From Nitrospiria bacterium (GTDB taxonomy: Bacteria > Nitrospirota > Nitrospiria > JACQBZ01): DNA of 64,000 bases. The first letter of the stretch is position 1, and each line of letters opens with the position of its first letter. This document shows, piece after piece, positions 10,144 through 55,450 of this stretch. A model generated the notes under the pieces. The model was given only the letters and a program-made list of their open reading frames with translations. It did no database searches and was not told the DNA's origin. The stretch lies in NCBI GenBank assembly GCA_035517655.1, contig DATIYJ010000029.1, positions 18,230-82,229 of the forward strand. Direction: 5' to 3'. A program made the translations under genes and the position numbers.

Positions 10144-10575
10144 CTACTCGGGCGCGTTCTTTTTGACAAACGCGTTAATGGCCTGTAGATATTTTGGGAT
10201 GTCTCTTAGGGCAAACTGAAGTCCTTCATAAACCTTCCGTTCATCAATCTCATCATATTCATGTACGATTCGGTTCCGTAGCCCGGATGCCCCCGCCAGT
10301 GTTCGCGCAAAGATGGGTTCCAGAACGCCGAGCCGTCCCAGTTCTACAAAGGATTCAAAATAGTCTTTGGGCGGCGGATGTCCGAGTTCAGTGACAATAT
10401 GGTAATTGATATCAATCATCCGGCCTATTATGCGTTCAAGGTAACGCTCGGCCAGGACTTCGTAAGTGGGATTTTAAAGATAAGCATCCAATGAAAATTC
10501 GGCGTAAGGCTCCAGGGCCTTGAGGTCTTTGCCGATGAGGCTTATCTTTCGGATCACCAGGGTGCGGTCGATCAC
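10144..10575 (-). pseudogene. hepT: HepT-family (DUF86, HEPN RxxxxHEY) toxin gene interrupted by an in-frame TAA
   Basis: C-terminal part is ORF 10144-10419 with GLRNRIVHEYDEID (HEPN Rx4HxY). Hand translation shows the same frame continuing upstream as VIDRTLVIRKISLIGKDLKALEPYAEFSLDAYL-TAA(10474-10476)-NPTYEVLAERYLERIIGRMIDINYH. A GTG start at 10575 overlaps the MNT stop (GTGA). Confidence 0.55.
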
Positions 10576-10991
10576 GAAGCCATCCCGGTTCTCTTTAGAA
10601 GTTGCTCAACGTATTGCCGTTCCATCTCAAAATAGCGGCGGTGGTCTTGATACCGTTTGAAGGTATAGATTTTAAGTTCCATCAGCCTACCAGGCGCGCC
10701 GTAAAGGAGGCGGCAGTTTTCGGTGATCTTTTTCAGAATGAGAGGATCGGCATGGTTGATGATACTGAGGTCAACGGGCTGATCGGGGAAAATTTTCTGG
10801 AAACCATGGACGAGCTCGGAATATTCCGGACTGGTGGGGCTGCGTTCTTTCCGGAACAGCACCGCGATATCAAGGTCGCTTCCGGCATGCCGCTTGCCGG
10901 TCAGGGCCGATCCAAAAAGCAGAATCAAACTGATCCCATGTCGATCGGCAATCCGGTTTAATTTTTTTCTTTCCTCGACGGCGAGTTCCAC
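10572..10991 (-). CDS. mntA: MNT-type nucleotidyltransferase antitoxin (partner of HepT)
   Basis: 139 aa. LFGSALTGKRHAGSDLDIAV is the GSx9-13DxD minimal nucleotidyltransferase motif. Immediately upstream of and overlapping hepT. Confidence 0.8.
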   Translation of the reverse strand: MELAVEERKKLNRIADRHGISLILLFGSALTGKRHAGSDLDIAVLFRKERSPTSPEYSELVHGFQKIFPDQPVDLSIINHADPLILKKITENCRLLYGAPGRLMELKIYTFKRYQDHRRYFEMERQYVEQLLKRTGMAS

Positions 10992-16011: not shown

Positions 16012-16656
16012 TCAAGAGGGAGGGATAAATTTGACGACGATTTTCCTGGACATGCCCGTGGGAGGAGGCCGAAGTTTCTTGAGTTCGGAAATGGCTTGAA
16101 GGGCGGACTGATCGAATTTTGGGTTGCCCGACGAATCCAAGAGCTGATATTTCAGGAGCTTCCCTTCATCGTCCACCTGAAGCTGAAAGACAACGGCCAG
16201 AGCCAAGTTCGACGGTAGATCGGGGGGTTGCTTATACAAACGCTGGATTTCGCTTGTTATCAGATCGACATATCCTGAAAACTTCCCTCCCGTTCCATTT
16301 CCGGAGGCAAAGGGATTTCCGAACCCGGGCAGTTGGACCGGCGCGGCGTGTTCCACGGGCGGAGGAGGAGCGCTTTTCGCCTCTTCCACCGGCGGAGGAG
16401 CAGCCTCGGGCTCGGCGGGCGGGGGCGGCGGTGGCTCGGGTTTGGGGGGTTCGGGCTCCGGCGGCTTGGGCTTCGGCGGCTCCGGTTCCCTCACATTCCG
16501 GATGTTGATTTTATAAATCGCCAAGAGTTCCTGTCCGAGCGACGTGGTGGCCAGCCAGACCAGCCCTCCCGCCAAAAGCAGGTGAAAACCGGCCACGATG
16601 ATCAAGGTGGTCCCCAGCCTGCTTTTTTTCTTCTTGAAGCCGGCGTATCCGGGCAC
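16012..16656 (-). CDS. tonB: TonB-family energy transducer (TM anchor, Pro-rich EP/KP spacer, TonB C-terminal domain)
   Basis: 214 aa. Proline-rich spacer EPEPPKPKPPEPEPPKPEPPPPPP. C-terminal ...LLDSSGNPKFDQSALQAISE resembles the TonB_C SSG..LD.AA motif. 4 nt after exbD. Confidence 0.7.
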   Translation of the reverse strand: MPGYAGFKKKKSRLGTTLIIVAGFHLLLAGGLVWLATTSLGQELLAIYKINIRNVREPEPPKPKPPEPEPPKPEPPPPPPAEPEAAPPPVEEAKSAPPPPVEHAAPVQLPGFGNPFASGNGTGGKFSGYVDLITSEIQRLYKQPPDLPSNLALAVVFQLQVDDEGKLLKYQLLDSSGNPKFDQSALQAISELKKLRPPPTGMSRKIVVKFIPPS

Positions 16657-16660
16657 AGGG

Positions 16661-17086
16661 TCAGCTCCCCGGGTCGCTCAGGAGTTTGGTGGCCAGACCC
16701 ACGTCTTCGATGGGCACTTTCTGCAACGCGTCCAATACCGCGACGACGTATTTGTACTCGACGTGCTCGTCCCCGCGGATGATGACGGGGAATTCACTCC
16801 CCTTGGCCTTCTTGAGGTCCCGTAAAATTCCCTCGAGCTCTCCGACCTCCACTTTTTGGTCGTCGAGATATATATCCCCCGTTTTTTTGATCGAAATCGC
16901 CCGCACCTTGTGCTCGTCGATGGTGGTGTCGTTCGGCGAGGATTCCGGAAGCTGCACCTCGATCCCCTGCAGCGCCGCCGTTGTCGTCAGGATGAAGACC
17001 ACCAGTAACACCCAGGCCAGATCGAGCAGCGGCGTGATATTCAACTCGGCCACCGCGCCGTGAGTGGATTTGGAAAATCGTTTCAT
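16661..17086 (-). CDS. exbD: ExbD/TolR biopolymer transport protein
   Basis: 141 aa. AELNITPLLDLAWVLLVVFILTT is the ExbD N-terminal TM signature. Confidence 0.8.
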   Translation of the reverse strand: MKRFSKSTHGAVAELNITPLLDLAWVLLVVFILTTTAALQGIEVQLPESSPNDTTIDEHKVRAISIKKTGDIYLDDQKVEVGELEGILRDLKKAKGSEFPVIIRGDEHVEYKYVVAVLDALQKVPIEDVGLATKLLSDPGS

Positions 17087-17119
17087 AATCGTCCTCCTCC
17101 CCGTTCCACGACGGACTAT

Positions 17120-17902
17120 CTACACGGTTCCCGGGTGCGCGGTGCCGGTCAGGGGATAGGCTCCCTGCTGACCCGTTTGCGAATCCACACCGGGCATCGT
17201 TCCCGTTGAAAGCGGCGCATCCGTAATCTTATGGCTCAAATATTCGGTGGCCAATACATTGTCCAGGTGCGCGGCGAAATTATCCATCTCGATCGTGATC
17301 TCCCGGATCTTGGTGACGAGATAGTTGTAGCAAAAAAGAGAGGGAATCGCGATTGAAAGACCGACCACCGTGTTGATCAGGGCCGCCGATACGCCCGGCG
17401 CCATGGCCGTCAAGCTGGCCTGCTGGCTGCGCGCGATGCCCGCAAAGGTATCCATGACCCCCCAGACCGTTCCGAGCAATCCGACAAAAGGACCCCCGCT
17501 GATGGCCGTCGCCAAAATGATCATGCCCGATTCCAGGTTTACGGTGGTTTCCCCCATCCCGCGCTCGATGGCGATGCGGACCGCGCTCATTCCATGGAGA
17601 GGAATTTTGTTTCCGTATTTGTTCAACTGACGCTTCAGCTCGTCGCAGGCTTCCCGGTAGACATCGAAGAGGGATGATCCTTCCAGCGATTTTTCCTGGG
17701 TGGATATCTCCAGAGCGGAATTTCCGGCGGAGTAAAGAGACAGAAACTGGGCATTCCGTCTCCGCGTCTTTCTCAGCTGCCGGAACTTATTAATGATGAC
17801 CGTCCAGCTCACCAATGAAAAGATCAAAAGGGCGATCATGATGATCTGCCCCTCGAGCGTCGAGTGCTTTAAACTGAAAGCAAGTCCTCCCAAATGTCCC
17901 AT
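17120..17902 (-). CDS. exbB: ExbB/TolQ/MotA-family proton channel
   Basis: 260 aa. Three TM helices. C-terminal MotA_ExbB region (GLLGTVWGVMDTFAGIA...TAMAPGVSAALINTVVGLSIAIP). Confidence 0.8.
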   Translation of the reverse strand: MGHLGGLAFSLKHSTLEGQIIMIALLIFSLVSWTVIINKFRQLRKTRRRNAQFLSLYSAGNSALEISTQEKSLEGSSLFDVYREACDELKRQLNKYGNKIPLHGMSAVRIAIERGMGETTVNLESGMIILATAISGGPFVGLLGTVWGVMDTFAGIARSQQASLTAMAPGVSAALINTVVGLSIAIPSLFCYNYLVTKIREITIEMDNFAAHLDNVLATEYLSHKITDAPLSTGTMPGVDSQTGQQGAYPLTGTAHPGTV

Positions 17903-17991
17903 ATCGATCTCTCCTAAGCGATTCCTGATGGTTTCGGGTTGTCCGGTCGAAGGATCCCGGACTCACAGCCGGGGATGCGCTCGGTTCGGAT

Positions 17992-20900
17992 TCAATTCTG
18001 ATTTTCATCGACATCCACTTCAATGGTGACGCCCTTCTTAAAGCTAAGGGTCTCGAAAACATTCCGACCCCGCTTCCCCTTCCGGCCGTCGTCCCGCTTC
18101 TTGCCGTTATCCGCCTCCTCCTGCGACCCCGCCGTCGCCGCGGCTTCCGTCACGGTATCCTGGGCCGATGCGACCGCCGTCGAGGTCGCCGCCGTCGAGG
18201 TCGTCGAGATCGATCCGGTGGAGCCGGTGAGACCGCCCAAACCGGTGTTCGCCCCCGATGGAACGGTCGGAACCGCGGTCGGCGGGGGGGTTGGAACAAT
18301 GACGGGGGGCGGAGAGGAAACAAGCGTATTCCCGCCCACACTCCCTCCGACCGGTCCCGTAATCGCGGTTTGATCCCCCACGATTTGATCGACGTTGACC
18401 GTCACGACGCCCTGGACCGTCCCGCCCTGAAGGTCCAGGTTTTTCGCGTCGATCGTAATCGTCCTGCCCCGTATGCCGGCGGGCGGGACGATCACGTTTC
18501 CCGAAGGCGCGTCGAGGACGATGTCGCCGAGTTTCAAGTCCTTGATATAATCGGCCTTGATATTTTCGTACTCCGCCGTCGCCGCCTGGACGGCTTTTCC
18601 GACCTGGGTAGTATAGTCCGCGTTGAGTTGATCCACAATTTTGTCGACCATGGCCTGGTACTGTTGAACCTGGGCCTGGTATTCAGCCTTGTATTCGGCC
18701 TTGTATTCCGCTTCGAGGACGGACGTGTCGTGTCCGAGAATCGTTTGTTTTGAGATCTCCGTCTGGAGCGACTCCAGACCGAGTGTCATCGTAAACGTAA
18801 ACGGCGGCACGACCAGAGTCGGAGGAAGAGGAATGACCGGGGCGGGCGGAGGCGGGAAGGGAGGCAGCGGGTTTGGATCCAAGGGACTGAACGTAAATAT
18901 CCCGCTCCCGGGAACCTTGTAATCCAAGTATGTTTTGATGACGTTCCCCTGATCATCCGTCAGTTCATCCACAAAGATGAACTCCACCAGTTCGTCCTTG
19001 CCGCCGCTCCCGGCGTTGATGTTTCCTTCCGTCGAAGTGATATGGATGTCTCCGCCGCCGAACGTGGCCACTCTCGATTTATTGACGTTGACGTCGCCCG
19101 TCGCGGTAATATCGATCTCTCCTCCTCGAAGGGTCATCAAGCCCAGATACGTGCCAAACGGGGAAACCCCGGACGATTGGTTGGTGCCGATGTCGACGCT
19201 ACCGCCGACGGGGCTGTCCGGCCCGTTGAGCCCGTGGACCTGGATCGCCGCTCCGTTGTAGGTGACGATCCGGGACTGGGTCATTTCAAGGTTCCCGCCC
19301 ACCGCGATTTCCAGCAGACCCTTTGGAACAATATCGTCGGTCGGGATGTTGGTGTACCTCTGGTCGATGCCCTGACTATCCGCCAGATTAATGTTCCCGC
19401 CGGCCGACACAAACCCGCCGCCCGTCCCGATGAAATGCAGCCCGCTGACACTCCCCCCGGTCGGCGTCATATCGATGTTCCCCGCGGCGCCGACCGTCGC
19501 CTGGACGCCGTCGGGAACCGAGAGCGTCGCGACGAAATTGGTGATGTCGGCTCCCGATTGCACTGTCACCTGTTTTCGCAGGGTCGGGCTGTAAAAATCC
19601 AGAGTGAGATTATTGATATCCCCGGTCGCCGTCTTGAATGAAACCGGAATCACATCGTTCGAAACATTCGGGGCGGGCGTGTTCAACAGCGGGGTCAGCT
19701 CACCGACCTGCAGGCCGAGCAGGGCGTTCGGATCGGCCGGAACCAGTTTCAGGGTGGGAGGAATGCCATTGACCGGGATGCCCTGAATCGTATCTTGCGC
19801 AAAGAAGTCAAGGCCGCCGGTCGGAGAAGGCCAGAACGTGAGACCGGCTTCGACAAAGATGCTCCCTTGAGGCGCGGTCGCACTGAATGAAGCGGGATAA
19901 TATTGTCTCAACTGAACCAGTTCCGGGCTTTTTTCTCCGTCGGTGACGAGGGGCCGCAGATGGATGTCCCCGTTCGTCGCGGTAAGGCTCACCGCATTGC
20001 TTGGATCGGCCGTTAACGCCCGGTTCCCATAGTTTCCATCGACTCCTTCGGACAGACCCTTGTCCTGGACAAGCCCAAGATAAACCGACTGGCCTGCGGT
20101 CACATCCACCTCCCCCTTCCCGAGCGTCAGGTTTACATAGTTATCGGCCGCGCCGAAATTTCCGCCCACGGTGACATGGGCCTGACCGTTCGACATAAGA
20201 AACCCGCCCAGGAAATCGCCGCCGGCCCTGATCGTCAAGGTACCGGGTACATCCGTGTCCAAACGAAAACCGCTGTATAACAGAAAAGAGTTGTCAAAGG
20301 TGCTCGGCGCGATGATATTCCGGCCCGCCTGAATCGTCATGCTGCCCCCGTATCCCGTCCCCACGGTCGAGTTGGAAAGAACAATATCCCTTCCGGCCGT
20401 CGCCGAGATGTTCCAGGGGGCTCCGCCGTTCAGCCCGGAAGGATCATTGATGATGAGCGTATCGTTGAATCGGAGGTCGTTCCCCGCGGTGAAGGTGATT
20501 TTTCCCCGCGACCCGGGCGCGACGGACCAGCCGCTCAGATCCGTGAGGACGCCCGTCACGTTGATGTCGTGATCGGCCTGGAAATCCAGTTCCGTCAAAC
20601 CGCTGAAGGGGTCGAAGTCATCCTGTGTCACCGTGAGATCATAAGGGTCCAGAAGAAACTTGCCCCCGCCGTATCCCGGAATCGCTCCGCCGCGAACGCT
20701 TCCTCCCAGCGTCAGGTCGTGACCGCTCAGTTCGGCCGAGCCGCCGTCCCCCCCTCCCGCGCCGCCGGAAACATCGATGACGGCGCCCGGATCGAACCGC
20801 GACGTTCCGTGACTTTTGTCCGACGTCGCGACGATCGTGCCCCCGTTTGATACCCCCTCGTCGGATCCTTTCGCCGATGTGACGCTGCCGTCGGACAGAG

Positions 20901-21738
20901 TCAACTCATCGCTTGCAAAAAGTTCGATCCGCCCTTCCTTTTCACGAACGCTGTCGGCCTGGATGAGCCCTTCCTGGTTGATGACGCGGGCATAGATGTT
21001 AACGTTCCCTCCGTCGGCAATCAGGTCTTCGAGGTTGACCGCCTCCCCGGTCGGATTTTTGACCTGGACCAGAAATCCCCGACCGTCCGGGCGGTCCGTC
21101 AGATAGGCCACCGTTCCGGCCGCCAGGACGATCTGTCCCTCCGGGCTCCGGATGAGACCGTTGTTCTCCACGTTCGGCGCGAAAAGATAGACGTACCCTC
21201 CCGAACCGGTTTCGATCGTCCCCGCGTTCTTCACCGATCCGGCGGCGGCCGTTCCGTTGAAGAGATATTTTCCCGCGAGAAAATTCCCATCGCTCAGGTT
21301 CAGAGAAGACGCGACCAAGCCGTTCACGTTGACCTGAGCGCTCGGGCCGAACATCACACCGTTGGGATTAAGAAGAATGACGGAGCCGTTGGCCTGAAGC
21401 GATCCGAAGATCTGGCTCGGATTTGCGTCGAAGATCCGGTTCAACGCGATGGACTGGGCCGTCGGCTGAATGAAGCGGGTGACCTCATTGGGCGCGATAT
21501 TGAACTGCTGCCAGCTCAGAATTGCTTTGGGGGTTGTCTGATTGATGGTCACGACCGAAGTCCCGACGCCTGAAACTGCGGCCCCGCCGTTCACCACGGT
21601 CGGCCCCAAGGGATTCGCAAGGGTCGTTTCGGGAAAAAGCAGGGATGCGCATAGAAGGAAGACGAGGATCCAGTTTTCGGACATGGCCGTACGTCTAAAA
21701 TCCACATTTTGCATTCCCCTCATGGCGAAGACCCCCAC
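17992..21738 (-). CDS. Two-partner-secretion exoprotein (TpsA) with N-terminal TPS/haemagglutination-activity domain and atypical Pro-rich/coiled-coil/basic C-terminus
   Basis: 1248 aa. TPS domain NPLGPTVVNGGAAVSGVGTSVVTINQTTPKAILSWQQFNIAPNEVTRF...NPNGVMFG. Gly/Asn-rich beta-helix body. C-terminal PLPPFPPPPAPVIPLPP, KAEYKAEYKAEYQ, S/T-rich region and a KKRDDGRKGKRGR tail. Confidence 0.8.
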   Translation of the reverse strand: MGVFAMRGMQNVDFRRTAMSENWILVFLLCASLLFPETTLANPLGPTVVNGGAAVSGVGTSVVTINQTTPKAILSWQQFNIAPNEVTRFIQPTAQSIALNRIFDANPSQIFGSLQANGSVILLNPNGVMFGPSAQVNVNGLVASSLNLSDGNFLAGKYLFNGTAAAGSVKNAGTIETGSGGYVYLFAPNVENNGLIRSPEGQIVLAAGTVAYLTDRPDGRGFLVQVKNPTGEAVNLEDLIADGGNVNIYARVINQEGLIQADSVREKEGRIELFASDELTLSDGSVTSAKGSDEGVSNGGTIVATSDKSHGTSRFDPGAVIDVSGGAGGGDGGSAELSGHDLTLGGSVRGGAIPGYGGGKFLLDPYDLTVTQDDFDPFSGLTELDFQADHDINVTGVLTDLSGWSVAPGSRGKITFTAGNDLRFNDTLIINDPSGLNGGAPWNISATAGRDIVLSNSTVGTGYGGSMTIQAGRNIIAPSTFDNSFLLYSGFRLDTDVPGTLTIRAGGDFLGGFLMSNGQAHVTVGGNFGAADNYVNLTLGKGEVDVTAGQSVYLGLVQDKGLSEGVDGNYGNRALTADPSNAVSLTATNGDIHLRPLVTDGEKSPELVQLRQYYPASFSATAPQGSIFVEAGLTFWPSPTGGLDFFAQDTIQGIPVNGIPPTLKLVPADPNALLGLQVGELTPLLNTPAPNVSNDVIPVSFKTATGDINNLTLDFYSPTLRKQVTVQSGADITNFVATLSVPDGVQATVGAAGNIDMTPTGGSVSGLHFIGTGGGFVSAGGNINLADSQGIDQRYTNIPTDDIVPKGLLEIAVGGNLEMTQSRIVTYNGAAIQVHGLNGPDSPVGGSVDIGTNQSSGVSPFGTYLGLMTLRGGEIDITATGDVNVNKSRVATFGGGDIHITSTEGNINAGSGGKDELVEFIFVDELTDDQGNVIKTYLDYKVPGSGIFTFSPLDPNPLPPFPPPPAPVIPLPPTLVVPPFTFTMTLGLESLQTEISKQTILGHDTSVLEAEYKAEYKAEYQAQVQQYQAMVDKIVDQLNADYTTQVGKAVQAATAEYENIKADYIKDLKLGDIVLDAPSGNVIVPPAGIRGRTITIDAKNLDLQGGTVQGVVTVNVDQIVGDQTAITGPVGGSVGGNTLVSSPPPVIVPTPPPTAVPTVPSGANTGLGGLTGSTGSISTTSTAATSTAVASAQDTVTEAAATAGSQEEADNGKKRDDGRKGKRGRNVFETLSFKKGVTIEVDVDENQN

Positions 21739-21741
21739 GTG

Positions 21742-23499
21742 TTAAAACATCACTTTGAGAGAAAAATGAATAAAATAATCCCCGGCCCGGGTAACGGAGG
21801 CATCCTTGAGCGCCCGGGCAAAATCCACGCGTCCCTGAAAATAGTCGGTCACTTTCAACCGAACGCCAAAACCCGCGCCGGCAAGCTGTTGACGGTTGAG
21901 TTGACCGGGAGGGGGCTTCAGGGTACGGAGGTAGGCCTCATCGTAGAATACGGTAAACATCAGGCTCTCCTTATAAGGATTGGGACGGACGATCGGAAAT
22001 GTTGGAGAAAGAAATTCCAATGTCCAGCGGAAGCCATCGTCTCCCAAGGCCTCGCTTTCCAGATAACCGCGCACCGAGTCCACGCCTCCCGCAAAATATT
22101 CTTCGGCCGGTATCAAGGGCCCGTTCGCCCACTGCCCGTCGGCCTTCAAGGACAGAGCGGATCCCTTTGGGAGATCCTGCAACCGCTCCAGACCTCCCTG
22201 AAGGATGAGAAAAGTCCCGGTCGAACCCTCGCGGTTGCCGGGATGGTTGATGCGATCCGATGGATCGCCTCCGAAATCCTCATTGCCTCCCCCCGGCACC
22301 ATCCCCGCCACATATCCTTTGGCCGTTAAGGAAATCTTCATCGTTCCCACATCGTCAGGATAAACCAGCGTATCGTTGATCGAGAGGGGCGCATAATTGA
22401 CCCGATCGCTTACGACCGCCGTCCCCAACCCACCAGGAAAGCTGGCCGTGCTCTTATCCAAATGTTTATAATCAAGACCCAGGATGATTTGCTCGGACAA
22501 TTTTGTGCCGGTATCGAGTGGAATGACATACCGGGTCCCCCCGATGTCGGCATTCCCGGGGATGTTGATATTTCCCGATGAGGTTGACACGGTTCCGGCG
22601 GATAACTGCGACTTGCTTTGGGAGAGTGCGCCATAAAAAACAGCCGTTCGACCGGACTGTTTCAATGGTACGACATAGCTCAATCCGTAAACCCGAACCC
22701 GTCCCCAATCCTGGGGCGTTTGAGTCGTCTGAAAGGTCAGGATCTGGTCCCGGTTAAAGAGGTTCGTATATTGGATCGCGCCGTTCAGGCGCTGTTCCGG
22801 CGTGTCGGGCGTCCCCTGATTGTTCCATTCAATACTTTCATGAAGCGGAAGCCGATCCTTGACCGCCAATTCGAGATCGACGGTTCCGGGTTTCTGCCCG
22901 AGCACGAGAGCCGGTGTGATTTGCAGGTCCGGATTGGAGTTGGCCATATTCAATTCCCTCAGGAACGTCGGCTCATAAATCAAGATGTTCTCTTTTAAAG
23001 AGGGCAGCCTCTCGAAAATCGTCTTCTTGGAAAAATACCGGTTCCCGACCACACGAATCTCGCCCAGCCTGCTTTCGATCACCGTGAGACGAACGACCCC
23101 GTTTTCGATGGTCTGCTGCGGGACGGTCACGATCACGGTGGGGTACCCGGCTTCGCGATAAGCCTTCTCCAGCGCGGAACGGGCCGATTCCACATCCATC
23201 ATGCGCTGTTTCGGCCCCAAATAATTCGAAACGATCGCTTTGACTCTCTCCGAAGGCAGAACCGAATTGCCATCGACCTGATAGTCGGTAACGGCAAAGG
23301 TGATCTCCGCGGGATTTTGGACCGGGGGTGCCTGTGCCGCCGGCTCATTGGGCGCCTGTCCTTGCGTCTCTTGCGGCGGTTTGGGCGCTTCCTGGGGCGC
23401 GGGCGCCGCTTCCCCCGTCCCCTCGTCCGCGCACCATGCCGAATGGGATCCGGAGAAGAGGAAACAAAGCAACCAAATGATCGGCAGGAGACCTTTCAA
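21742..23499 (-). CDS. TpsB transporter (ShlB/FhaC/HecB family, POTRA plus Omp85-type barrel)
   Basis: 585 aa. Signal peptide. Pro/Ala/Gln-rich linker. POTRA region ITFAVTDYQVDGNSVLP...RLTVIESRLGEIRVVGNRYF. C-terminal aromatic residue (…FSLKVMF). Stop is 3 nt before the tpsA start. Confidence 0.85.
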   Translation of the reverse strand: MKGLLPIIWLLCFLFSGSHSAWCADEGTGEAAPAPQEAPKPPQETQGQAPNEPAAQAPPVQNPAEITFAVTDYQVDGNSVLPSERVKAIVSNYLGPKQRMMDVESARSALEKAYREAGYPTVIVTVPQQTIENGVVRLTVIESRLGEIRVVGNRYFSKKTIFERLPSLKENILIYEPTFLRELNMANSNPDLQITPALVLGQKPGTVDLELAVKDRLPLHESIEWNNQGTPDTPEQRLNGAIQYTNLFNRDQILTFQTTQTPQDWGRVRVYGLSYVVPLKQSGRTAVFYGALSQSKSQLSAGTVSTSSGNINIPGNADIGGTRYVIPLDTGTKLSEQIILGLDYKHLDKSTASFPGGLGTAVVSDRVNYAPLSINDTLVYPDDVGTMKISLTAKGYVAGMVPGGGNEDFGGDPSDRINHPGNREGSTGTFLILQGGLERLQDLPKGSALSLKADGQWANGPLIPAEEYFAGGVDSVRGYLESEALGDDGFRWTLEFLSPTFPIVRPNPYKESLMFTVFYDEAYLRTLKPPPGQLNRQQLAGAGFGVRLKVTDYFQGRVDFARALKDASVTRAGDYFIHFSLKVMF

Positions 23500-24050
23500 C
23501 CTCCGGTCTCTCCGTCGGAAGGCCCGGCCTCCGCGCCTGGAAGATTGTCGGTCTCTTGGAGTTCTTTGAGAATCTGCATCGCTTCGGGATCCGCCTCGAC
23601 CACGGGTTTCAGCCAGGCGATCAGGATACGGCGGGTCTCCGGATCCGGTTCGTTTAAAATTCTATTCAAAACCTCTTGCCGTTGAGACCGCTCCTCGTCC
23701 CGGTGATCGGCGGCGTCACCCGGACTGTTCAGATCCGACAGGTACGGGGCATGACGCAAAAGAATCTGTTGGACGGCCGCGGATGGAGGAATCGCGCTGT
23801 CTTGATTCCGGGCATACCCGTCCGGAACGGGACCCGCCGGCCCGGAATTCTGCCGGCCCCCGGCCGATGGTGAAAGCGCGCCGCGTTGATCCTGGGCATA
23901 CCCGCCCGGATTGCGCCCTACTCGGACGGAATCCTGTCGGACGACGGCACCGGAGGGAACTTGTTCATCGGAGCCGCACCCACCCAGGGGGAAAAACAGC
24001 GCGCAGCAGGCCGCCAGCGAAACGGCGGCGAGGATCGTTTTAGTGAACAT
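23496..24050 (-). CDS. Lipoprotein of unknown function, first gene of the tps operon (4-bp overlap with tpsB)
   Basis: 184 aa. Signal plus lipobox ...LFFPLGGCGSDE. Disordered Gly/Pro/Gln-rich middle. Acidic helical C-terminus. Confidence 0.55.
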   Translation of the reverse strand: MFTKTILAAVSLAACCALFFPLGGCGSDEQVPSGAVVRQDSVRVGRNPGGYAQDQRGALSPSAGGRQNSGPAGPVPDGYARNQDSAIPPSAAVQQILLRHAPYLSDLNSPGDAADHRDEERSQRQEVLNRILNEPDPETRRILIAWLKPVVEADPEAMQILKELQETDNLPGAEAGPSDGETGG

Positions 24051-24114: not shown

Positions 24115-25539
24115 TTATCTGGATATCAAGAATTGATTAAATTTCTGTAAACTCCCGTTGAAGATCGCAAGAAGAGCGCGCGCGAGCCCTTTCAGCCGCT
24201 TCCGGAATCGCACGAGCCGGGATTGACGAAGCGTCATGGATTCCGTCAACCGCTCGATGCGGTCGGCCACATCGCCAAAACCGCGTTCCATGAATCGCAC
24301 CCGCTGAAAACAATCCAGAGCTTCTTCGATCTTCCCCTGCTCTTCCAGAACGCATCCCATTTCATAACGCACACGAATGACCTCCCGGCCGGGCGCGGAA
24401 TAATCCGACAAGGCTCTTCTGAATAATTTCAGGGCCTCGTCGCTTCGACCCGCCTCCCGGTGGCAAAGGCCGGCCAGGAACGAGGCCTTCATCCAATAGG
24501 CCGGGTCCTCCGCGGCTTTTTCAAAGAAGGGAACGGCCTCGTCCCGCCGGCCCGCTTCCTTCAATTCCATCCCTTTTTGGTAGGCCATGCCGGAAGCTTT
24601 TCCCGAAGCCTCGGCCGACCCGGACCGTTCCGACCGATGAGTCGGCCATTCGCCGTTCCCCTCCTGATCCCGAACCGGGCGCTCTCTTCCATTCAGAAAG
24701 GAGGTTAGACCGCTATCTTTGACAAAGGGAATGATTCTCCCCGCGATCCGGTCCGAAGCCGCCTCGGCCACCAGCCGGGCCGAAATCCTCTCGGCCTGTT
24801 CCGCGAATCCGTAAACAAGAGAACGTTCGCAGGCCTGATTGATCAAGCGAGGAACGCCCCCCGAAATGCGATAGATCAGGGAAAACGCCTCCTCTTCGAA
24901 CAGCGGAATTTCTCTCCCGGCGGTTTTCACGCGATGATGGATATACCGATCGGTTTCTTCCGCATTCATCGGTTCCAGGTGATACTCCGCGTCGATCCGC
25001 TGAGCGAACTGGATCATGTCGGACCGGCGCAAGAGATCCCGGAGGCCGGGCTGCCCGGAAAGAACGATCTGCAGAATCGGGTCCTTGCCGGAATTCATGT
25101 TCGACAACAGCCTCAGTTCCTCCAGCATGGAGGGTTCCAGATTCTGAGCCTCGTCCACGACCAGGACCACCCGGCGTTTCAGGGCATGTTCCCGGTCCAA
25201 GAACTCCGCAAATTTTCGGTGGACGGATGCCTGATCCCGGCTCCGGGGCCGCAGATTAAAGATCCCCATCATCCACGGCATCAGGCTCTGAAAGTTGCCA
25301 TGGGTGTTCGAGATCAGACCGATGGTGAGCTCCTGTCCGGCTTCGCCCATCATCTTGCGCAACAGCAGGCTTTTGCCGGTCCCGATCTCGCCGGTAATGA
25401 CGATGAACCCGGATCGATTAAAGAGGCCGTATTCCAACAAACTCAGAGCCGCGCGATGGTTGGAACTGCGGTAAAAGAACTCGGGATCCGGAATAAGAGA
25501 AAACGGTTTCTCGCGAAATCCGTAAAACGATTCGTACAT
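24115..25539 (-). CDS. ExeA/GspA-like AAA ATPase with C-terminal TPR domain (putative secretion ATPase of PEP-CTERM/exosortase loci)
   Basis: 474 aa. MYESFYGFREKPFSLIPDPEFFYRSSNHRAALSLLEYGL...ITGEIGTGKS (Walker A). VVLVVDEAQNL. TPR-like C-terminus. I recall a PEP-CTERM-locus ATPase TIGRFAM subfamily with this architecture. Confidence 0.8.
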   Translation of the reverse strand: MYESFYGFREKPFSLIPDPEFFYRSSNHRAALSLLEYGLFNRSGFIVITGEIGTGKSLLLRKMMGEAGQELTIGLISNTHGNFQSLMPWMMGIFNLRPRSRDQASVHRKFAEFLDREHALKRRVVLVVDEAQNLEPSMLEELRLLSNMNSGKDPILQIVLSGQPGLRDLLRRSDMIQFAQRIDAEYHLEPMNAEETDRYIHHRVKTAGREIPLFEEEAFSLIYRISGGVPRLINQACERSLVYGFAEQAERISARLVAEAASDRIAGRIIPFVKDSGLTSFLNGRERPVRDQEGNGEWPTHRSERSGSAEASGKASGMAYQKGMELKEAGRRDEAVPFFEKAAEDPAYWMKASFLAGLCHREAGRSDEALKLFRRALSDYSAPGREVIRVRYEMGCVLEEQGKIEEALDCFQRVRFMERGFGDVADRIERLTESMTLRQSRLVRFRKRLKGLARALLAIFNGSLQKFNQFLISR

Positions 25540-25599
25540 AATCCTCCTGACCTCGGGAACGCATGGATGGACAACCGGGCCACATCCCGTTGGTTGTTC

Positions 25600-26379
25600 C
25601 TAGCTTTTATTCAAGACCGTTCCGATCAAGGGAACTTCTTTGATCAGATGCAATGCTTTTTCGATTTCCTCCCTCTTGGTCCGCCCCGCCTCGACGACCA
25701 ACAACAAGGCGTCGAGGTAGGGAGAAAAGGCCAACACATCGGCCGACCGGAGGAGCGGGGGGAGATCGAAGAGGACCAGCCTTTCCGGGTAGCGGTGCTT
25801 TAACTCCGCCACCAGGGCGGTCATCTTCGGCGACGTGAGCCGTTCGGTCGAATCATGAATTTTCCGCCCCCCCGGGAGGAGAACGAGACGTCCGAGACCC
25901 GGATGGACCAGGAGCGACTCGACGGGAATATCGTCCAGCAGATATTCGGCCAGCCCCCGGTCCGGCCCGATTCCGAGGACGCCGTGCACGCCCGGGTTTC
26001 GCAAATCCGCGTCGACCAGGAGAACCGTCTGACCCGCCTCCATCGCCAGACTGATCGCCAGGTTGATCGCCGTCACCGTTTTCCCTTCGCCCTCTCCCGG
26101 ACTCGTCACCCCGAGCATACTCCAGCCGTTTTCCCGCATCCGATGAAGGACCTGTGTCCGAAGAATTTTATAGGCATGGACAAACTCGTTCTCTTCAAAG
26201 GCCGCGAGGATCCGCCGCTCCCGCATATGGGAGAGCGGCACCTCCACCGAACGCGTCCGGGTATAGATGATGCGTTCCGAGGATCTTACCGGCGAATACG
26301 GGGGGCCGGTAAGGGTCGAGGGCCCCTCTTTTTCTCGTTTCTCTTTCACTCGATCGAGTGCGAGCTGTATCTTGTCCAT
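25600..26379 (-). CDS. BY-kinase-like P-loop ATPase (exopolysaccharide tyrosine autokinase, MinD/ParA fold)
   Basis: ATG at 26379 (MDKIQLALDRVKEK). VTSPGEGEGKTVTAINLAISLA Walker A. VLLVDADLRNP Walker A'/B. RBS ggagtg. Confidence 0.8.
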   Translation of the reverse strand: MDKIQLALDRVKEKREKEGPSTLTGPPYSPVRSSERIIYTRTRSVEVPLSHMRERRILAAFEENEFVHAYKILRTQVLHRMRENGWSMLGVTSPGEGEGKTVTAINLAISLAMEAGQTVLLVDADLRNPGVHGVLGIGPDRGLAEYLLDDIPVESLLVHPGLGRLVLLPGGRKIHDSTERLTSPKMTALVAELKHRYPERLVLFDLPPLLRSADVLAFSPYLDALLLVVEAGRTKREEIEKALHLIKEVPLIGTVLNKS

Positions 26380-26395
26380 ATTCACTCCGATGCCT

Positions 26396-28141
26396 TTATC
26401 CGACCCCAAGCTTCCGCAGAACGACGAACCAGAGGACATCCAGGGGAACCCATAGGAGATGAATCGTCATCAACGAAATAACCAGAAGACCGATGCTTCC
26501 TCCGATCAGCCGTCTTTTGATCCGAAGGGACCGTTTCCGGTCTTCCGTATTGGGCATGTAGGGAATGACCGCCAGCGGGGGCGCCTGACTTACCGTGCCC
26601 AGCGTCTGCGCGGTATGGACGGAATGGTCGAGACTTTCCGCCGCCGCTCCGTAGCCGATGCCGCCGGCGGCGGCCAGCACGAGACTGAGAAAAACGATGA
26701 CGGGCCGTTTCGGCTTTTCCGGTTTTTCGGGAAGGGCCGGGGGATCGATCAGGGAAAAACGCTCCCCTTTGCGCTGGTCTTCCAAAACCTCCGAGACCTG
26801 GGCTTCCACCAATTTGGACCGGATCTCACGGTATTTCTCGACGGAGTTATCCCGGTCGCGGGTCAGGTCCAGGTACACCTGCTCGATCATGGGAGTTTCC
26901 TCCAGCCGATGCGAAAGTTCCTGGGCGCGGGCTTTCATTTCCGCCCGCGTGGCCTTCATCGCGTCCAAATCGTGTATGGCCGATGAAAGTTGGGATTGGG
27001 TCAGGATGTAGGCCGGGTTTTCGGGCGGAACCGCCGCCGGTTCTTCCGGCGTCGTCTTCGCCTGGGCGATCTCTTTTTCAAGGGAGGCGATGATCTTTCG
27101 GTAGCGGACGACATCGGGATGGTCTTCCCCATACCGCTCCAAAAGGCCGGACAGGTTCGCACGGGCGTCGGTGATCTGTTTGGAAAGTTCGTCCGCGTCG
27201 CTTCCCTTTCCGACCTCTTTCTCGAGCGCATCGATCTCCCGCTTCATCTTGATCACATCGGGATGCTGCGCCGATAAATAGGACGCGCTGCTCGCATACT
27301 GAGCCCGCAGGGCTTTAAGCCTTTCTTCCCGGTCCAGGATGCGTTCCCCGGAGGCGGTGATGATCGGCGTGTTGGGTTTCAGGGTCGCCAATTGTCCTTC
27401 GAGAGAAATCTTCTTTTCTTCGAGCGAACGGACTTGTTGATCCACATTGATCAGCTCCTGGTCGACCTGATTCAACAACTGCATGTTCAGCTGCGTCAGT
27501 TCGGGCAAGGCCCCCTGGGCGCGCTCCTTGAAGACCGAAATCTTTTTTTCCAGTTCCTTAATATGGCCGGAGAGTCGTTGGGCCTGGCCTTTGAGAAACA
27601 CCGTCGTTTCCTGGGCGTTGCGTTCACGGGTTTTCAGATTCTCGGACAAGAAAAGACTGGTCAGCTCGTTGGCGACCTTCTGGGCCAATTCCGGGGTTTC
27701 CCCGTCATACGCCAGGGTGAACGCGATGGTGGCGTGCGTCGGCTGGCCGGTGCGGCGGTCCACGACCTCCGCGCTGATCACCTCGATTTTGATGTCGTCC
27801 ACGAAACGCTCCAGCACGTCTTCCGTCGTGCTGCGCCGGCGCAGGCCGGAATAAAGCCCGTATTGTTCCACGATCTTCCAGAGGTTGGAGCGGGTCATGA
27901 CTTGGTGTTTGATGGTTTCGATGCGCTGATCGGCATAGCTGGTTACGGTGGATCGCACCAGATCCGTGGGGACCTCCTGTTCCTCGATCAGAATGGTGGC
28001 CGTGGAGCGATAGGCGGACGGCAAAAGGAACGCCACCAGGATGCCCAGGATAAAGAGCACCGCCGTGGGCGCTAAAATTTGAATTTTTCTCCTCTGAAAA
28101 AGGTCCAGATATTCTCGGAGGTCTTTCTTCTGATCATCCAT
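26396..28141 (-). CDS. Polysaccharide chain-length determinant (Wzz/GumC family, PEP-CTERM-locus type)
   Basis: 581 aa. N-terminal TM (ILAPTAVLFILGILVAFLLP). Long coiled-coil periplasmic region. C-terminal TM (PVIVFLSLVLAAAGGIGYGAAAE). Confidence 0.8.
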   Translation of the reverse strand: MDDQKKDLREYLDLFQRRKIQILAPTAVLFILGILVAFLLPSAYRSTATILIEEQEVPTDLVRSTVTSYADQRIETIKHQVMTRSNLWKIVEQYGLYSGLRRRSTTEDVLERFVDDIKIEVISAEVVDRRTGQPTHATIAFTLAYDGETPELAQKVANELTSLFLSENLKTRERNAQETTVFLKGQAQRLSGHIKELEKKISVFKERAQGALPELTQLNMQLLNQVDQELINVDQQVRSLEEKKISLEGQLATLKPNTPIITASGERILDREERLKALRAQYASSASYLSAQHPDVIKMKREIDALEKEVGKGSDADELSKQITDARANLSGLLERYGEDHPDVVRYRKIIASLEKEIAQAKTTPEEPAAVPPENPAYILTQSQLSSAIHDLDAMKATRAEMKARAQELSHRLEETPMIEQVYLDLTRDRDNSVEKYREIRSKLVEAQVSEVLEDQRKGERFSLIDPPALPEKPEKPKRPVIVFLSLVLAAAGGIGYGAAAESLDHSVHTAQTLGTVSQAPPLAVIPYMPNTEDRKRSLRIKRRLIGGSIGLLVISLMTIHLLWVPLDVLWFVVLRKLGVG

Positions 28142-28194
28142 CGAACGTAAACCCTTTCATGCTCTTTTCACCGGACTGCGTCAGGGCCCTGTCC

Positions 28195-29361
28195 TTACCG
28201 GGAAATCGCCATCCGAGGCCCGTTGTACGTCGTGATCAGAAAAACGGCATTGGAAATCGCCCGGCCGGGCGCGTTATAAACCGCCTGTTCGGCATAACGG
28301 TAAGAAACCCCCGAGGACCAGCGTTCGGCCCACTGCCAATCCCAGCGTTGCTCGATCTTATCGTAGCGGCTGTTCGGGACCAGCCGATCCGTCCGAAGCG
28401 GCCGGCTCAGGTAAGAGTCGACGGCCAAAGAGGCGGTCAGTTTTGTCGTCATCGTTTTTCTAAACAAAAAATTAAGATGATTGACTTCGACCAGGTATCC
28501 GATGCCGCTCGGGTGGGTTTCCCGGCTGAACCCGCTTTGAACATGGACGGTCTCGAATTCCTTCTCAAGATCGATCTGGCCCACCCATCCCCGTCCGCGA
28601 TCCCGCCGTTCGGAAAGGGTTGTTTGATAGATCGATGTCGTGCTGCGGATCCCCGCCGTCGCGTCCCCGTGAAACGTCTCGGAAAAACGATGCGTCAAAC
28701 CCGCCTTGGCGCCGTATTCCAACGACCGGAAGTCCGCCGTCAGCGCCTGGTAGGTCGAATAATAAGAACTCACGGTGGCTTGATCCCGCTCGGAGCTCTG
28801 GTACACCGCCTGGACCGTTCCCAGGTGGGTCTGGTAGTCGACCAGACTCGGACTCGCGTAAAGGGCGTCGGAGAAATCGTACTCGGCATGGAGCGTGAAA
28901 TTTTCAGTCAGGGAACCGATCCATTTGGGATTCAAGGTGAACAGGTCGCGTCGCGACCGATTGAGCACCTGGCCGGTTTCGATCAGTTCGCTCGTCAAGG
29001 TCAGATCGCGCGTGTACGAACTTTGTAATTCCAAGCTGTTTCGCTCCATTTGATAACGGCTTGAGACGGTGTAGTACTGATCGGTCGTGTCCAAATCCTT
29101 TTGTGTAAAATAGCGCGTGAGATTCACCAAAAGATTCCCTTGAAGCTCGAACGGCTCCGTGCGCACCCCGAGATTTAAACTTGGGGATAACGTGCTCCCC
29201 GTCGCCGGATGACGAACGGGAAGCAACAGGGGGTTATCGTCGTATGCCCCGTTCAGGCTCACCGAGGGTTCCATCGACCATTCGGCCGCGGCCGCCTCCT
29301 TAGAAAAAACAAGCAAAACCGCCAGAACCCATCCACCCGATCTTCTCCAGAGCGGCCGCAT
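28195..29361 (-). CDS. Putative outer-membrane beta-barrel protein associated with exosortase/EPS loci
   Basis: 388 aa. Signal peptide (AAAAEW). Alternating amphipathic beta-strand pattern rich in Y/T/S/L. I recall an uncharacterised PEP-CTERM-locus OMP family with this profile. Confidence 0.5.
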   Translation of the reverse strand: MRPLWRRSGGWVLAVLLVFSKEAAAAEWSMEPSVSLNGAYDDNPLLLPVRHPATGSTLSPSLNLGVRTEPFELQGNLLVNLTRYFTQKDLDTTDQYYTVSSRYQMERNSLELQSSYTRDLTLTSELIETGQVLNRSRRDLFTLNPKWIGSLTENFTLHAEYDFSDALYASPSLVDYQTHLGTVQAVYQSSERDQATVSSYYSTYQALTADFRSLEYGAKAGLTHRFSETFHGDATAGIRSTTSIYQTTLSERRDRGRGWVGQIDLEKEFETVHVQSGFSRETHPSGIGYLVEVNHLNFLFRKTMTTKLTASLAVDSYLSRPLRTDRLVPNSRYDKIEQRWDWQWAERWSSGVSYRYAEQAVYNAPGRAISNAVFLITTYNGPRMAISR

Positions 29362-29411
29362 GATGAATTAAGAACCGGGCGTCGTGCCATCCGGTGTTCT
29401 CCTCGACTTCT

Positions 29412-29999
29412 TCACGGCACCACGATCACGTCCCCCCTTTGAAGGAGGATGTTCTGCTCCAAGTGCTTCCCTTTCTTGATGTCGCCGTAGCGGAAGGAAA
29501 AAGTCCGCTGCCCCCCCGGTTCCGAGTGGAGGACCTCGATCCCGTTTTCCGAGGCGAACGGCGTCATGCCCCCCGCCAGACTGAGGGCCTGCATGACATT
29601 GGTGTAATGACCGACCAGGTATTCCCCGGGGCGATTTACTTTTCCGACCACGTATATTTTATAGCTGTTCACCTTGGTCACGGCGACCGAGACGGTCGGG
29701 TCGGGGATGAACGGTGAAAGACGCTCCCGGATATCCTTTTGGAGTTCCTCGGCGGTCCTTCCCTCGGCCTGCACCTCCCCGATGAGCGGAAACGAAATCA
29801 TCCCGTCCGGCCGAACCAGCGCCTCCCGGGTCAGGCTTTCGTCCTTCCAAACGGAAATCTGCAGCACATCCTCCGGTCCCAGGCGGTACTCCGATTTTGC
29901 GGAAACCACCCCCGCATCCGATTCGGCGCCCGCCAGGATCGGAAGAAGGCTCAACGCCACCGATGCAACGATGACCCCTATGGTTTCCAGCCCTCTCAA
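29412..29999 (-). CDS. Polysaccharide export protein (Wza-like periplasmic/OM export, PES domain)
   Basis: 195 aa. Signal peptide. YRLGPEDVLQISVW...VRPDGMISFPLIGEVQAEGRTAEELQKDI...NSYKIYVVGKVNRPGEY is the Poly_export/SLBB signature. Confidence 0.8.
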   Translation of the reverse strand: MRGLETIGVIVASVALSLLPILAGAESDAGVVSAKSEYRLGPEDVLQISVWKDESLTREALVRPDGMISFPLIGEVQAEGRTAEELQKDIRERLSPFIPDPTVSVAVTKVNSYKIYVVGKVNRPGEYLVGHYTNVMQALSLAGGMTPFASENGIEVLHSEPGGQRTFSFRYGDIKKGKHLEQNILLQRGDVIVVP

Positions 30000-30021
30000 A
30001 CGTCACTCCCCCGCTTTGTCC

Positions 30022-32409: not shown

Positions 32410-32455
32410 CGTCTCGCTCCCTCGTTCCACAAAATACGCCACACCCAATCCCCTT

Positions 32456-55395: not shown

Positions 55396-55450
55396 GATGT
55401 CTCCGGAGCAATTCCGCCCGGAGAATTTTTCCCCGGGCGGAATGCATTGT

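Follow-up and report, generated by a model that had tools for sequence, protein, structure and literature searches.

In the textbook account, type V secretion proceeds without inner-membrane energy and Ton systems serve TonB-dependent receptors. Here we describe a locus that places the genes of the two side by side. It lies in a stretch of 64,000 nucleotides from a Nitrospiria bacterium (GenBank assembly GCA_035517655.1, contig DATIYJ010000029.1, positions 18,230 to 82,229), referred to below as the window, and consists of a two-partner secretion (TPS) pair, the exoprotein TpsA and its outer-membrane transporter TpsB, together with exbB-, exbD- and tonB-like genes on the same strand. On balance, we favour the view that in this cassette Nitrospirota have their own version of a conserved envelope module, in which a TPS pair is joined to its own Ton/Tol-type proton motor.

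The closest described system is the Pdt cluster of Pseudomonas aeruginosa. There, PA0690 (tpsA), PA0692 (tpsB), PA0693 (exbB2), PA0694 (exbD2) and the tonB homologue PA0695 form one cluster regulated by sigma-VreI (Llamas et al., 2009; PMC2729926). The PA0690-PA0695 cluster adjoins Hxc, a type II secretion system, and the association of tpsB with exbBD in other Proteobacteria was already remarked upon at that time (PMC2729926). A single promoter is reported to transcribe phdA, pdtB, exbB2D2, tonB4 and PA0696-PA0701 (Quesada et al., 2016; PMC4971064), and the cluster as a whole, pdtA-phdA-pdtB-exbB2-exbD2-tonB4, is under sigma-VreI and PhoB control and is induced by phosphate starvation (PMC2729926; PMC4971064; PMC7035377). 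PdtA and PdtB have been called a functional TPS system (Otero-Asman et al., PMC7035377), and in the later literature on PA0693, PA0695 and PA0696 we found no functional study of the motor. The preliminary description of the window held this linkage of genes not to be a described architecture, which is mistaken, since PA0690-PA0695 has been in print since 2009 and plasmid clusters of the same kind are annotated too.

A TPS pair beside a Ton/Tol-type motor

The cassette comprises six open reading frames (ORFs) lying head to tail on the minus strand between positions 16012 and 24050 (Table 1), namely a lipoprotein gene, tpsB, tpsA and the exbB-, exbD- and tonB-like genes. From the lipoprotein gene to tonB the spacings are a 4-nt overlap, 3 nt, 89 nt, 33 nt and 4 nt; order, strand, coordinates and spacings are as the preliminary description gave them, and our ORF and domain calls agree with it. 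On identical contigs from soil metagenomes, public annotation places the start of tpsA 15 or 24 nt later (1243 or 1240 aa), with which the tpsB-tpsA gap would become 18-27 nt. A terminator together with a separate promoter between tpsA and exbB would have spoken against the linkage, and when the 89-nt spacer was searched neither a terminator-like nor a promoter-like site was found; its folding is no better than that of shuffled sequence (z = 0.66). Pfam and NCBIfam scans found no TonB-dependent receptor in the cassette, in agreement with what had been claimed, nor in the whole 16-58 kb block, the single ORF of 819 aa being the TPR protein PrsT. In the window a convergent P-type ATPase gene closes the cassette after the tonB-like gene.

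When other genomes were searched for the order tpsB-tpsA-exbB-exbD-tonB, it proved to be strictly kept. A species scan based on a TpsB alignment, with one genome per species, gave 43 loci, 41 of them from Nitrospirota, and local phmmer comparison found the full five-gene set on one strand in 35 of 47 loci compared. All 35 Nitrospirota loci that reach far enough have the order, including those of Nitrospira sp. KM1 and N. moscoviensis, and each of the ten Nitrospirota loci that miss a part ends at a contig edge. In three annotated loci with distant TpsA homologues (36-44% identity, one of them in the complete genome of Nitrospira sp. KM1) the order is the same, and the tpsA-exbB gap is 12-34 nt. 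No TonB-dependent receptor was found beside the cassette in those related loci whose genes are annotated or labelled by Pfam. Within Nitrospirota the five genes do not come apart, and the suggestion that their pairing is coincidental, with one operon serving two functions, is refuted by an order conserved in 35/35 loci, over 35 Nitrospirota species, and across phyla.

The lipoprotein gene stands apart from this core. Pfam and NCBIfam scans give it no family and its homologues occur only in near-identical contigs (our loci L001-L004), making it lineage-specific; in another locus, L067, a non-homologous 185-aa lipoprotein gene occupies the same place ahead of tpsB.

Turning to the motor, its subunits miss every NCBIfam equivalog cut-off, with 121 bits against 206 for exbB, 57 against 216 for ExbD, 160 against 221 for tolQ and 91.6 against 127 for tolR, while the transducer scores 41.9 bits to tolA_full and 38.4 to tonB_Cterm. 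The NCBIfam scores to TolQ, TolR and TolA are at least as high as those to ExbB, ExbD and TonB, and taken together these values argue for a third kind of Ton/Tol-type motor rather than the housekeeping one. The nearest PDB sequences to the transducer are the C-terminal domain of P. aeruginosa TolA (6s3w and 1lr0, E = 0.02). The structural hallmarks of a Ton system are all present, namely the transmembrane Asp of ExbD, the transmembrane His of TonB, a Pro-rich rod and a C-terminal domain; the Asp (in ITPLLDLA) is invariant in 36 cassettes and the His in 35. With the Thr residues of ExbB added, the alignments indicate that the motor keeps the residues of a working stator.

In ExbB, the Glu of the canonical APGIAEAL motif is replaced (APGVSAAL in the window). 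Module ExbBs of Nitrospirota have Ala or Ser in its place, and so do those of three proteobacterial modules (L055, L056 and L065) out of four checked; in the fourth, that of Klebsiella, the APGIAEAL pattern is not matched. Nitrospirota ExbD is 38-48% identical to the ExbDs of proteobacterial modules (86-115 bits) and 25-30% identical to E. coli TolR and ExbD (23-53 bits); for the ExbD of the window the latter value is 25% (23-49 bits). For ExbB the preference is weaker, at 104-139 bits to module proteins versus 92-100 bits to the E. coli ones. Judged by these comparisons, the motor is of the ExbB2/ExbD2 subtype common to the proteobacterial modules.

P. aeruginosa was compared only by way of plasmid clusters that match the published PA0690-PA0701 gene content. 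A tblastn search with the TpsB of the window returned plasmid relatives at about 30% identity and 84-89% coverage, and of the 11 loci inspected eight have tpsB followed by exbB-exbD-tonB-Porin_5 and a hypothetical gene, mostly also with genes for YbjN and/or a peptidyl-prolyl isomerase (PPIase), which is the content of PA0692-PA0699. These eight come from Methylosinus, two Cupriavidus, Ralstonia, Klebsiella quasipneumoniae, Burkholderia arboris, Variovorax and Aquabacterium olei. The Methylosinus locus adds vreAIR-type genes for sigma, FecR and TonB-N, and the Klebsiella locus has tpsA upstream and a LysR gene downstream. The Aquabacterium plasmid pTB101 keeps the order of the window, as tpsB-tpsA-exbB-exbD-exbD-tonB, with PEP-CTERM and type II secretion genes upstream.

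The shared TpsB subfamily, ExbD group and gene content identify the window's cassette as a relative of the Pdt-type module, and we consider it highly probable that pair and motor are one functional unit homologous to that module. In both, the same five gene families adjoin without a TonB-dependent receptor, the canonical Glu is missing from most of the ExbBs, TpsA has a related tail (and, in the window, a DUF3739 match below the cut-off), and type II secretion genes are often adjacent; some Pdt-type plasmid loci also have a PstS-like gene (Methylomagnum), phoU or phoX. There are also differences. The window's ExbB has 260 aa, versus 550-634 aa in the proteobacterial modules, where DUF2341 and Laminin_G_3 periplasmic domains are present. 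The Nitrospirota form is without Porin_5, PA0697-like, YbjN and PPIase genes, and when the Cupriavidus proteins (Porin_5, YbjN, PPIase and hypothetical) were used as phmmer queries, no match came up in the window or in any Nitrospirota locus. Nitrospirota TpsAs have 1.2-1.5 thousand residues versus more than 3.4 thousand in Methylomagnum and Aquabacterium (whole gene in the fetched stretch). Finally, there are no sigma/anti-sigma genes of the vreAIR type and a link to the exosortase XrtD and VPLPA-CTERM proteins is found instead. What is new is therefore the Nitrospirota cassette as a streamlined variant, the TPS-motor architecture itself being already on record in Proteobacteria.

Several further arrangements were seen around this family. 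In two metagenome genomes (L049 and L051, Gammaproteobacteria/Pseudomonadota) genes for a giant DUF3739 TpsA (>3200 aa), TpsB, Porin_5 and VPLPA-CTERM proteins adjoin a polysaccharide export locus of the PEP-CTERM type, and there are no motor genes within 10 kb; this represents a motor-less, exosortase-linked form of the same TPS family. On the Methylomagnum ishizawai plasmid pRS11DPr1 (L054, 26448-29485) a gene annotated as 'Cys-every-fifth RiPP peptide CefA' and a radical SAM maturase gene lie right behind the giant tpsA. Upstream of tpsB, but on the other strand, L007, L008, L009 and some 40 further Nitrospirota loci, though not the window, have in common a T2SSC-like gene, an OMP_b-brl gene and a gene for a 231-aa unknown; L008 also has pseudopilin-type T2SSJ and T2SSK genes near the cassette. 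Parallels to these type II secretion neighbours are Hxc beside P. aeruginosa pdtA and the gsp genes carried by the Cupriavidus and Aquabacterium plasmids.

Table 1. Cassette genes and associated features of the window (positions counted from its first letter).
Feature	Coordinates	Strand	Description
TonB/TolA-type transducer, 214 aa	16012-16656	-	TonB_2 44.5 bits, TonB_C 30.9 bits; transmembrane helix, Pro-rich rod, C-terminal TonB_2 domain
ExbD/TolR-type subunit, 141 aa	16661-17086	-	ExbD 93.5 bits; ExbD2 subtype
ExbB/TolQ-type proton-channel subunit, 260 aa	17120-17902	-	MotA_ExbB 100.5 bits; short form without periplasmic N-terminal domain
TpsA exoprotein, 1248 aa	17992-21738	-	TPS domain, beta-helical body, weak DUF3739, C-terminal helical hairpin and beta domain
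TpsA tail motif KKGVTIEVDV	18010-18039	-	Extreme C-terminus; candidate beta-strand docking peptide
TpsA disordered linker, residues 1163-1233	18040-18252	-	Ser/Thr/Ala/Pro-rich, then basic; model confidence (pLDDT) below 50 over model residues 283-353
TpsB outer-membrane transporter, 585 aa	21742-23499	-	POTRA_2 66.7 bits, ShlB 56.6 bits; two POTRA domains and Omp85/ShlB barrel
Lipoprotein-like gene, 184 aa	23496-24050	-	Signal peptide and lipobox-like PLGG|C; 4-nt overlap with tpsB
Exopolysaccharide export genes upstream of cassette	24115-32481	-	PrsT, Poly_export, 388-aa unknown, chain-length determinant, tyrosine autokinase, PEP-CTERM-type ATPase
XrtD, VPLPA-CTERM-specific exosortase fused to EpsI	34096-35697	-	TIGR04152 547.6 bits (cut-off 400)
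Three more VPLPA-CTERM cargo genes	54085-54792, 54796-55458, 55451-56071	-	C-terminal tails of VP[LI]P, hydrophobic stretch and basic residues
Secreted PstS-like (PBP_like_2) protein, 458 aa	56159-57535	-	PBP_like_2 35.5 bits; ptsS_2 29.6 bits, below cut-off
VPLPA-CTERM protein d1, 246 aa	57598-58338	-	Tail APVPIPAAMVLFGTGLVGLVGVARRN; TIGR03370 23.9 bits (cut-off 25.35), borderline

TpsB, TpsA and a candidate docking tail

TpsB has what is expected of a TPS transporter, with two POTRA domains, a barrel and the VRGY signature within its L6 motif (DSVRGY). Its AlphaFold2 model (48-row alignment; mean predicted local distance difference test score, pLDDT, 79; predicted TM-score, pTM, 0.70) shows the same two POTRA domains and barrel, and by Foldseek matches FhaC (7.8e-26) and CdiB (2.7e-24) best. 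By sequence, CdiB is reached at only 1e-6 and FhaC is missing from the matches listed, and the motor-linked TpsB of a Cupriavidus plasmid is 31% identical (phmmer E = 9e-66). Residues 15-62 of the model are disordered and Pro-rich with pLDDT below 50, and strands at 68-76 begin POTRA1. The N-terminal H1 plug helix of FhaC and CdiB was not seen in this model, which is a prediction and not a solved structure. The proteobacterial TpsB relatives have about 10-25 residues between signal peptide and POTRA1 and hence no room for such a helix. We conclude that TpsB is, as modelled, an FhaC-like transporter with two POTRA domains and without a plug helix. A TonB box had been suggested for the segment PAEITFAVTDY, taken to be part of an N-terminal linker; this segment matches the first ten positions (1-10) of the POTRA_2 model and forms strand beta-1 of POTRA1 in the AlphaFold2 model, so the suggestion falls, and the disordered region ahead of it varies in length and sequence among homologues and contains no conserved TonB box.

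TpsA is a filament-type exoprotein of about 1250 aa. Its TPS domain (PF05860, 117.5 bits, residues 49-286; adhes_NPXG TIGR01901, 82.4 bits) carries the NPNG-type motif LNPNGVMFG, as befits a type Vb exoprotein, and the PDB relatives of its N-terminus are HMW1 (4.5e-38), EtpA and HxuA. A search at E <= 1e-10 returned 985 homologues, of which those with a name come from Nitrospiria or Nitrospira. The DUF3739 score (PF12545) is 23.4 bits and below the cut-off of 27, and many close homologues carry this domain in precomputed hits, with 135 bits for the Klebsiella TpsA and 114 bits for that of L049. The mature part contains no cysteine. For residues 881-1248 an AlphaFold2 model (49-row alignment, pLDDT 79) gives a confident fold to about residue 1140. 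Within residues 881-1162 (18253-19098, minus strand) the model shows a Pro-rich segment, a long helical hairpin with a main helix of about 60 residues and a compact beta domain. Foldseek comparison of the C-terminal model with the PDB found no fold match (best E = 3.9).

The protein ends in a disordered linker of about 70 residues, whose sequence and length vary from homologue to homologue, and a conserved basic beta-strand tail. The family pattern of the tail is basic-basic-G-V-x-I-x-V-x-hydrophobic, which in Nitrospirota takes the form K[RK]GV[VT]I[QE]VDV. It is present in 36/36 Nitrospirota TpsAs read from their loci and in about 117 of 120 database homologues (97 with the strict pattern and 20 close variants), and related tails, STISVEILGYGD, GILTVELLSLGD, SIMVDVVGFGD and AFVTIDILGFDF, are found in proteobacterial TpsAs of the family. 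In the model the tail forms short, low-confidence strands that do not pack against the fold. With a linker of pLDDT below 50 preceding it, the tail is, in the model, a tethered linear motif and not a strand of the fold. Fully extended, about 70 residues could by our own estimate span the barrel plus much of the periplasm. The tail also resembles the N-terminus of E. coli TolB, EVRIVIDSG; TolA binds this TolB segment, and TonB binds TonB boxes, both by beta-strand addition.

We propose that the TonB/TolA-like rod would span the periplasm and that the TpsB-TpsA complex, instead of a TonB-dependent receptor, would be what it couples to the proton-motive force. The likeliest contact would be beta-strand capture of the TpsA C-terminal tail, which would leave the periplasm last and may remain threaded through TpsB, in a manner akin to TolA with the TolB N-terminus or TonB with a TonB box. 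The outcome might be a surface filament that is held, pulled, gated or released, and in Nitrospirota this filament may act with exosortase-sorted surface proteins in the building of a matrix or aggregates, possibly under phosphate control. Conservation of the tail, the disordered linker, the TolA-like domain of the transducer, the plug-less TpsB and the retained motor residues together suggest that the motor acts on TpsB-TpsA, likely by way of the tail. No competing partner for the transducer was found, either as a conserved box in TpsB or as a receptor at the locus. That the motor energises TpsA, which was one hypothesis of the preliminary description, is plausible. Its more specific form we offer tentatively: capture of the tail by the transducer is possible rather than probable, and we would put no higher the complete picture of a type V system powered by the proton-motive force, in which the transducer would grip the tail of a TpsA threaded through plug-less TpsB and which in Nitrospirota would be wired to a VPLPA-CTERM matrix.

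There are several points that weigh against an action of the motor on the TPS pair through the tail. Related tails occur in family TpsAs with no motor in reach (Methylomagnum, L049, L051 and L068), so the tail may serve otherwise, for example in docking to POTRA domains or in anchoring. The gene that invariably adjoins the motor in P. aeruginosa is tpsB and not tpsA, and Porin_5 there always comes after tonB, such that the porin could be the real partner in that species; in Proteobacteria at large Porin_5 is just as constant a neighbour. BLAST detects no similarity between the TonB-like proteins of Nitrospirota and those of Proteobacteria. A transposon mutant of PA0695 was unchanged in zebrafish virulence, the sole phenotype tested (PMC2729926). 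Lastly, type V translocation has been reviewed as having no energy source powering it, and it runs in liposomes without energy input (PMC5422565), from which it follows that a motor is unnecessary for export as such.

Exosortase and phosphate neighbours, and what else the motor might do

The cassette of the window lies directly downstream, on the same strand, of an exopolysaccharide locus with XrtD (Table 1), and four VPLPA-type tails together with this exosortase make up an XrtD/VPLPA-CTERM system. The export genes score 279.8 bits to pepcterm_ATPase, 186.7 to pepcterm_TyrKin, 260.2 to pepcterm_ChnLen, 335 to PrsT (cut-off 312) and 141.5 to pepcterm_export. Between the Poly_export and chain-length-determinant genes lies the 388-aa ORF (28195-29361, minus strand), without a Pfam or NCBIfam family, and the same slot is filled in other PEP-CTERM-type loci by unannotated genes of 465 aa (L049) and 393 aa (L067).

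Two kinds of gene from this neighbourhood accompany the cassette elsewhere. A VPLPA-CTERM gene begins within 1 kb after tonB in 31/32 loci; orthologues of d1 stand immediately 3' of tonB in other Nitrospirota, and a relative of the product of 54796-55458, which we call d3, is found after the cassette in 19-22 loci. PstS-like homologues adjoin the cassette in 32 Nitrospirota loci. In L010 the VPLPA-CTERM and PstS-like genes are just ahead of tpsB. L067 reads XrtD-type polysaccharide locus, tpsA, VPLPA gene, PstS-like gene, lipoprotein gene, tpsB, exbB, exbD, tonB, and L068 reads tpsA, VPLPA gene, 495-aa gene, tpsB and three VPLPA genes; L068 has no motor within reach, and in both loci a PstS-like gene lies between tpsA and tpsB. 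In the window itself, the 30-kb XrtD polysaccharide locus splits in two a set of genes that lie together in other genomes. A PBP_like_2 gene is also directly ahead of tpsB on the Methylomagnum plasmid, and the two proteobacterial metagenome genomes from the species scan (L049 and L051) pair TPS genes of this family with VPLPA genes. That VPLPA-CTERM and PstS-like genes travel with the cassette in every Nitrospirota arrangement seen is a supported and new association: we found no literature or family model linking the TPS-motor cassette to XrtD/VPLPA-CTERM, and nothing relevant in the literature on Nitrospira filamentous hemagglutinin with TonB, DUF3739, XrtD or VPLPA-CTERM. The PEP-CTERM protein of Aquabacterium and its 426-aa neighbour were considered as homologues of d1 and the PstS-like protein and set aside, the similarity not being significant.

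Phosphate-related genes form a second thread. Porin_O_P is near the cassette in L007 and L009, PhoU and a PstB-like ABC ATPase in L067; phoU is near the family TPS pair on the Methylomagnum plasmid, and PhoX stands beside a weaker, motor-less TPS pair in Caballeronia. In the window the gene for an OmpR-family response regulator (59120-59827, plus strand) diverges from the start of the minus-strand block at 16-58 kb. Among NCBIfam families the regulator matches PhoB best, at 219.7 bits and below the cut-off of 296.

These neighbours, together with the Pho-regulon module of P. aeruginosa, keep nutrient capture as the main rival to a motor acting on the TPS pair. Here the filament and the PstS-like protein would bind a scarce substrate, for instance phosphorus, and the motor would drive its inward passage through TpsB or, in Proteobacteria, Porin_5. 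In keeping with this, the P. aeruginosa module belongs to the phosphate-starvation regulon and lies beside the Hxc secretion system and the LapA phosphatase, Porin_5 comes after tonB in the motor-bearing proteobacterial modules, and HxuCBA provides a precedent for a TPS pair working with TonB-dependent uptake. However, the Nitrospirota modules have neither Porin_5 nor a TonB-dependent receptor, their conserved set includes no inner-membrane transporter, and solute import by Omp85-type transporters is not known. The PstS-like protein is moreover very divergent (29.6 bits versus a cut-off of 206.6), and a sequence search of the PDB gave no match, so that no DING/PstS relative of solved structure was found for it. 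We regard import as unlikely.

Improbable, in our view, is that a motor-powered TpsB exports XrtD-processed VPLPA-CTERM proteins, or polysaccharide attached to them, with TpsA as scaffold or co-substrate. The genomic association speaks for this: VPLPA-CTERM genes follow tonB in nearly all loci, lie between tpsA and tpsB in L067 and L068 and occur near the TPS pair in the two proteobacterial metagenome genomes, with a PEP-CTERM gene on the Aquabacterium plasmid, and in the window the XrtD polysaccharide locus is placed between cargo genes and cassette. We know of no route by which PEP-CTERM proteins cross the outer membrane. A recognition strand could be provided by d1, whose family has, besides the sorting tail, its most conserved stretch (GDLVLA[IV]YGNN[TS]E) about 5 residues from the predicted mature N-terminus; this stretch, which resembles a TonB or TolA box, might offer the transducer a second possible partner, or might be no more than the strand with which the fold begins. 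Against export of such cargo, the known specificity of TpsBs is for TPS domains, which the cargo proteins lack, and the locus owns a Poly_export (Wza-type) protein for polysaccharide. Moreover, PEP-CTERM genes are absent from the Klebsiella and Cupriavidus loci and from the published PA0690-PA0701 list, all with the same TPS-motor core, from which we infer a core function independent of the exosortase link. The hypothesis that the pair serves the adjacent exosortase system is supported as a genomic association in Nitrospirota.

Least probable of the three is that only regulation is shared, an extra Ton system being co-induced with the TPS pair to power receptors encoded elsewhere with no physical link, as could be argued from the several Ton systems common in one bacterium (papers on multiple TonB paralogues), from the lack of an identified TonB box or partner in the cassette and from the PA0695 mutant without a virulence phenotype; but the tpsB-motor adjacency is kept across Nitrospirota and Alpha-, Beta- and Gammaproteobacteria despite rearrangements around it, the motor subunits are a subtype of their own with a common altered ExbB motif, and a receptor gene never joins the set.

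Further genes of the window were noted in passing. After the regulator gene, a 646-aa ORF (59920-61860) has no family match. A chlorite-dismutase-family gene with an N-terminal PCP_red-like segment (62279-63226, minus strand) fits a Nitrospira-type organism, and at about 10144-10991 (mapped from L001, 16096-16943) an NTP_transf_2/Polbeta nucleotidyltransferase gene and a HepT-like gene resemble an MNT-HepT toxin-antitoxin pair.

Significance and comparison with known systems

A module kept from Nitrospirota to Gammaproteobacteria implies that at least one TPS family uses a motor for something. If the picture of a type V system powered by the proton-motive force were true, no earlier TPS system would have had an energy source of its own, and the long-unexplained ExbB2-ExbD2-TonB4 of P. 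aeruginosa would gain a function. The analysis provides leads in the TpsA tail as a candidate docking peptide, the putatively plug-less TpsB, the diagnostic motor residues and a tractable homologue in PA0690-PA0695. Nitrite oxidisers form dense aggregates in soils and treatment plants, and the XrtD/VPLPA-CTERM link points to a role in matrix or floc.

Among known systems, the HxuA/HxuB/HxuC system of Haemophilus influenzae is similar in that its TPS pair works with a TonB-dependent step. The Hxu operon, however, has the receptor gene hxuC and relies on the general TonB, whereas here the operon has the motor genes and no receptor.

The likeness to Tol-Pal lies in subunits that score best to TolQ and TolR, in a transducer C-terminus nearest to TolA domain III and in a tail similar to the TolB N-terminus. 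The cassette differs in having no tolB, pal, ybgC or cpoB, and in scores below the equivalog cut-offs, with identities to the E. coli proteins of 25% (TolR) and 32% (TolQ). The gene order is not that of Tol-Pal, since the transducer gene is followed by the P-type ATPase gene in the window or by a VPLPA-CTERM gene in other loci, and the proposed docking peptide would be C-terminal rather than N-terminal.

CdrA/CdrB of P. aeruginosa and HMW1/HMW1B of H. influenzae are TPS systems whose TpsA remains cell-bound, its C-terminus lying periplasmic to TpsB, and they offer a precedent for a TpsA acting together with an exopolysaccharide matrix. HMW1 is also the closest PDB relative of the window's TPS domain. 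Those proteins are held by disulfide-bonded C-terminal loops, and CdrA is freed by a periplasmic protease, whereas the mature part of the window's TpsA has no cysteine and a motor is encoded with it.

Finally, in the Agl-Glt gliding machinery of Myxococcus a TolQ/TolR-type motor and TonB-like periplasmic proteins pass force to outer-membrane and surface adhesins, not to nutrient import. Agl-Glt differs from the cassette in that the window has no Glt homologues, a weak GltJ match coming from a Pro-rich region only, and in that the lineage gives no evidence of motility.

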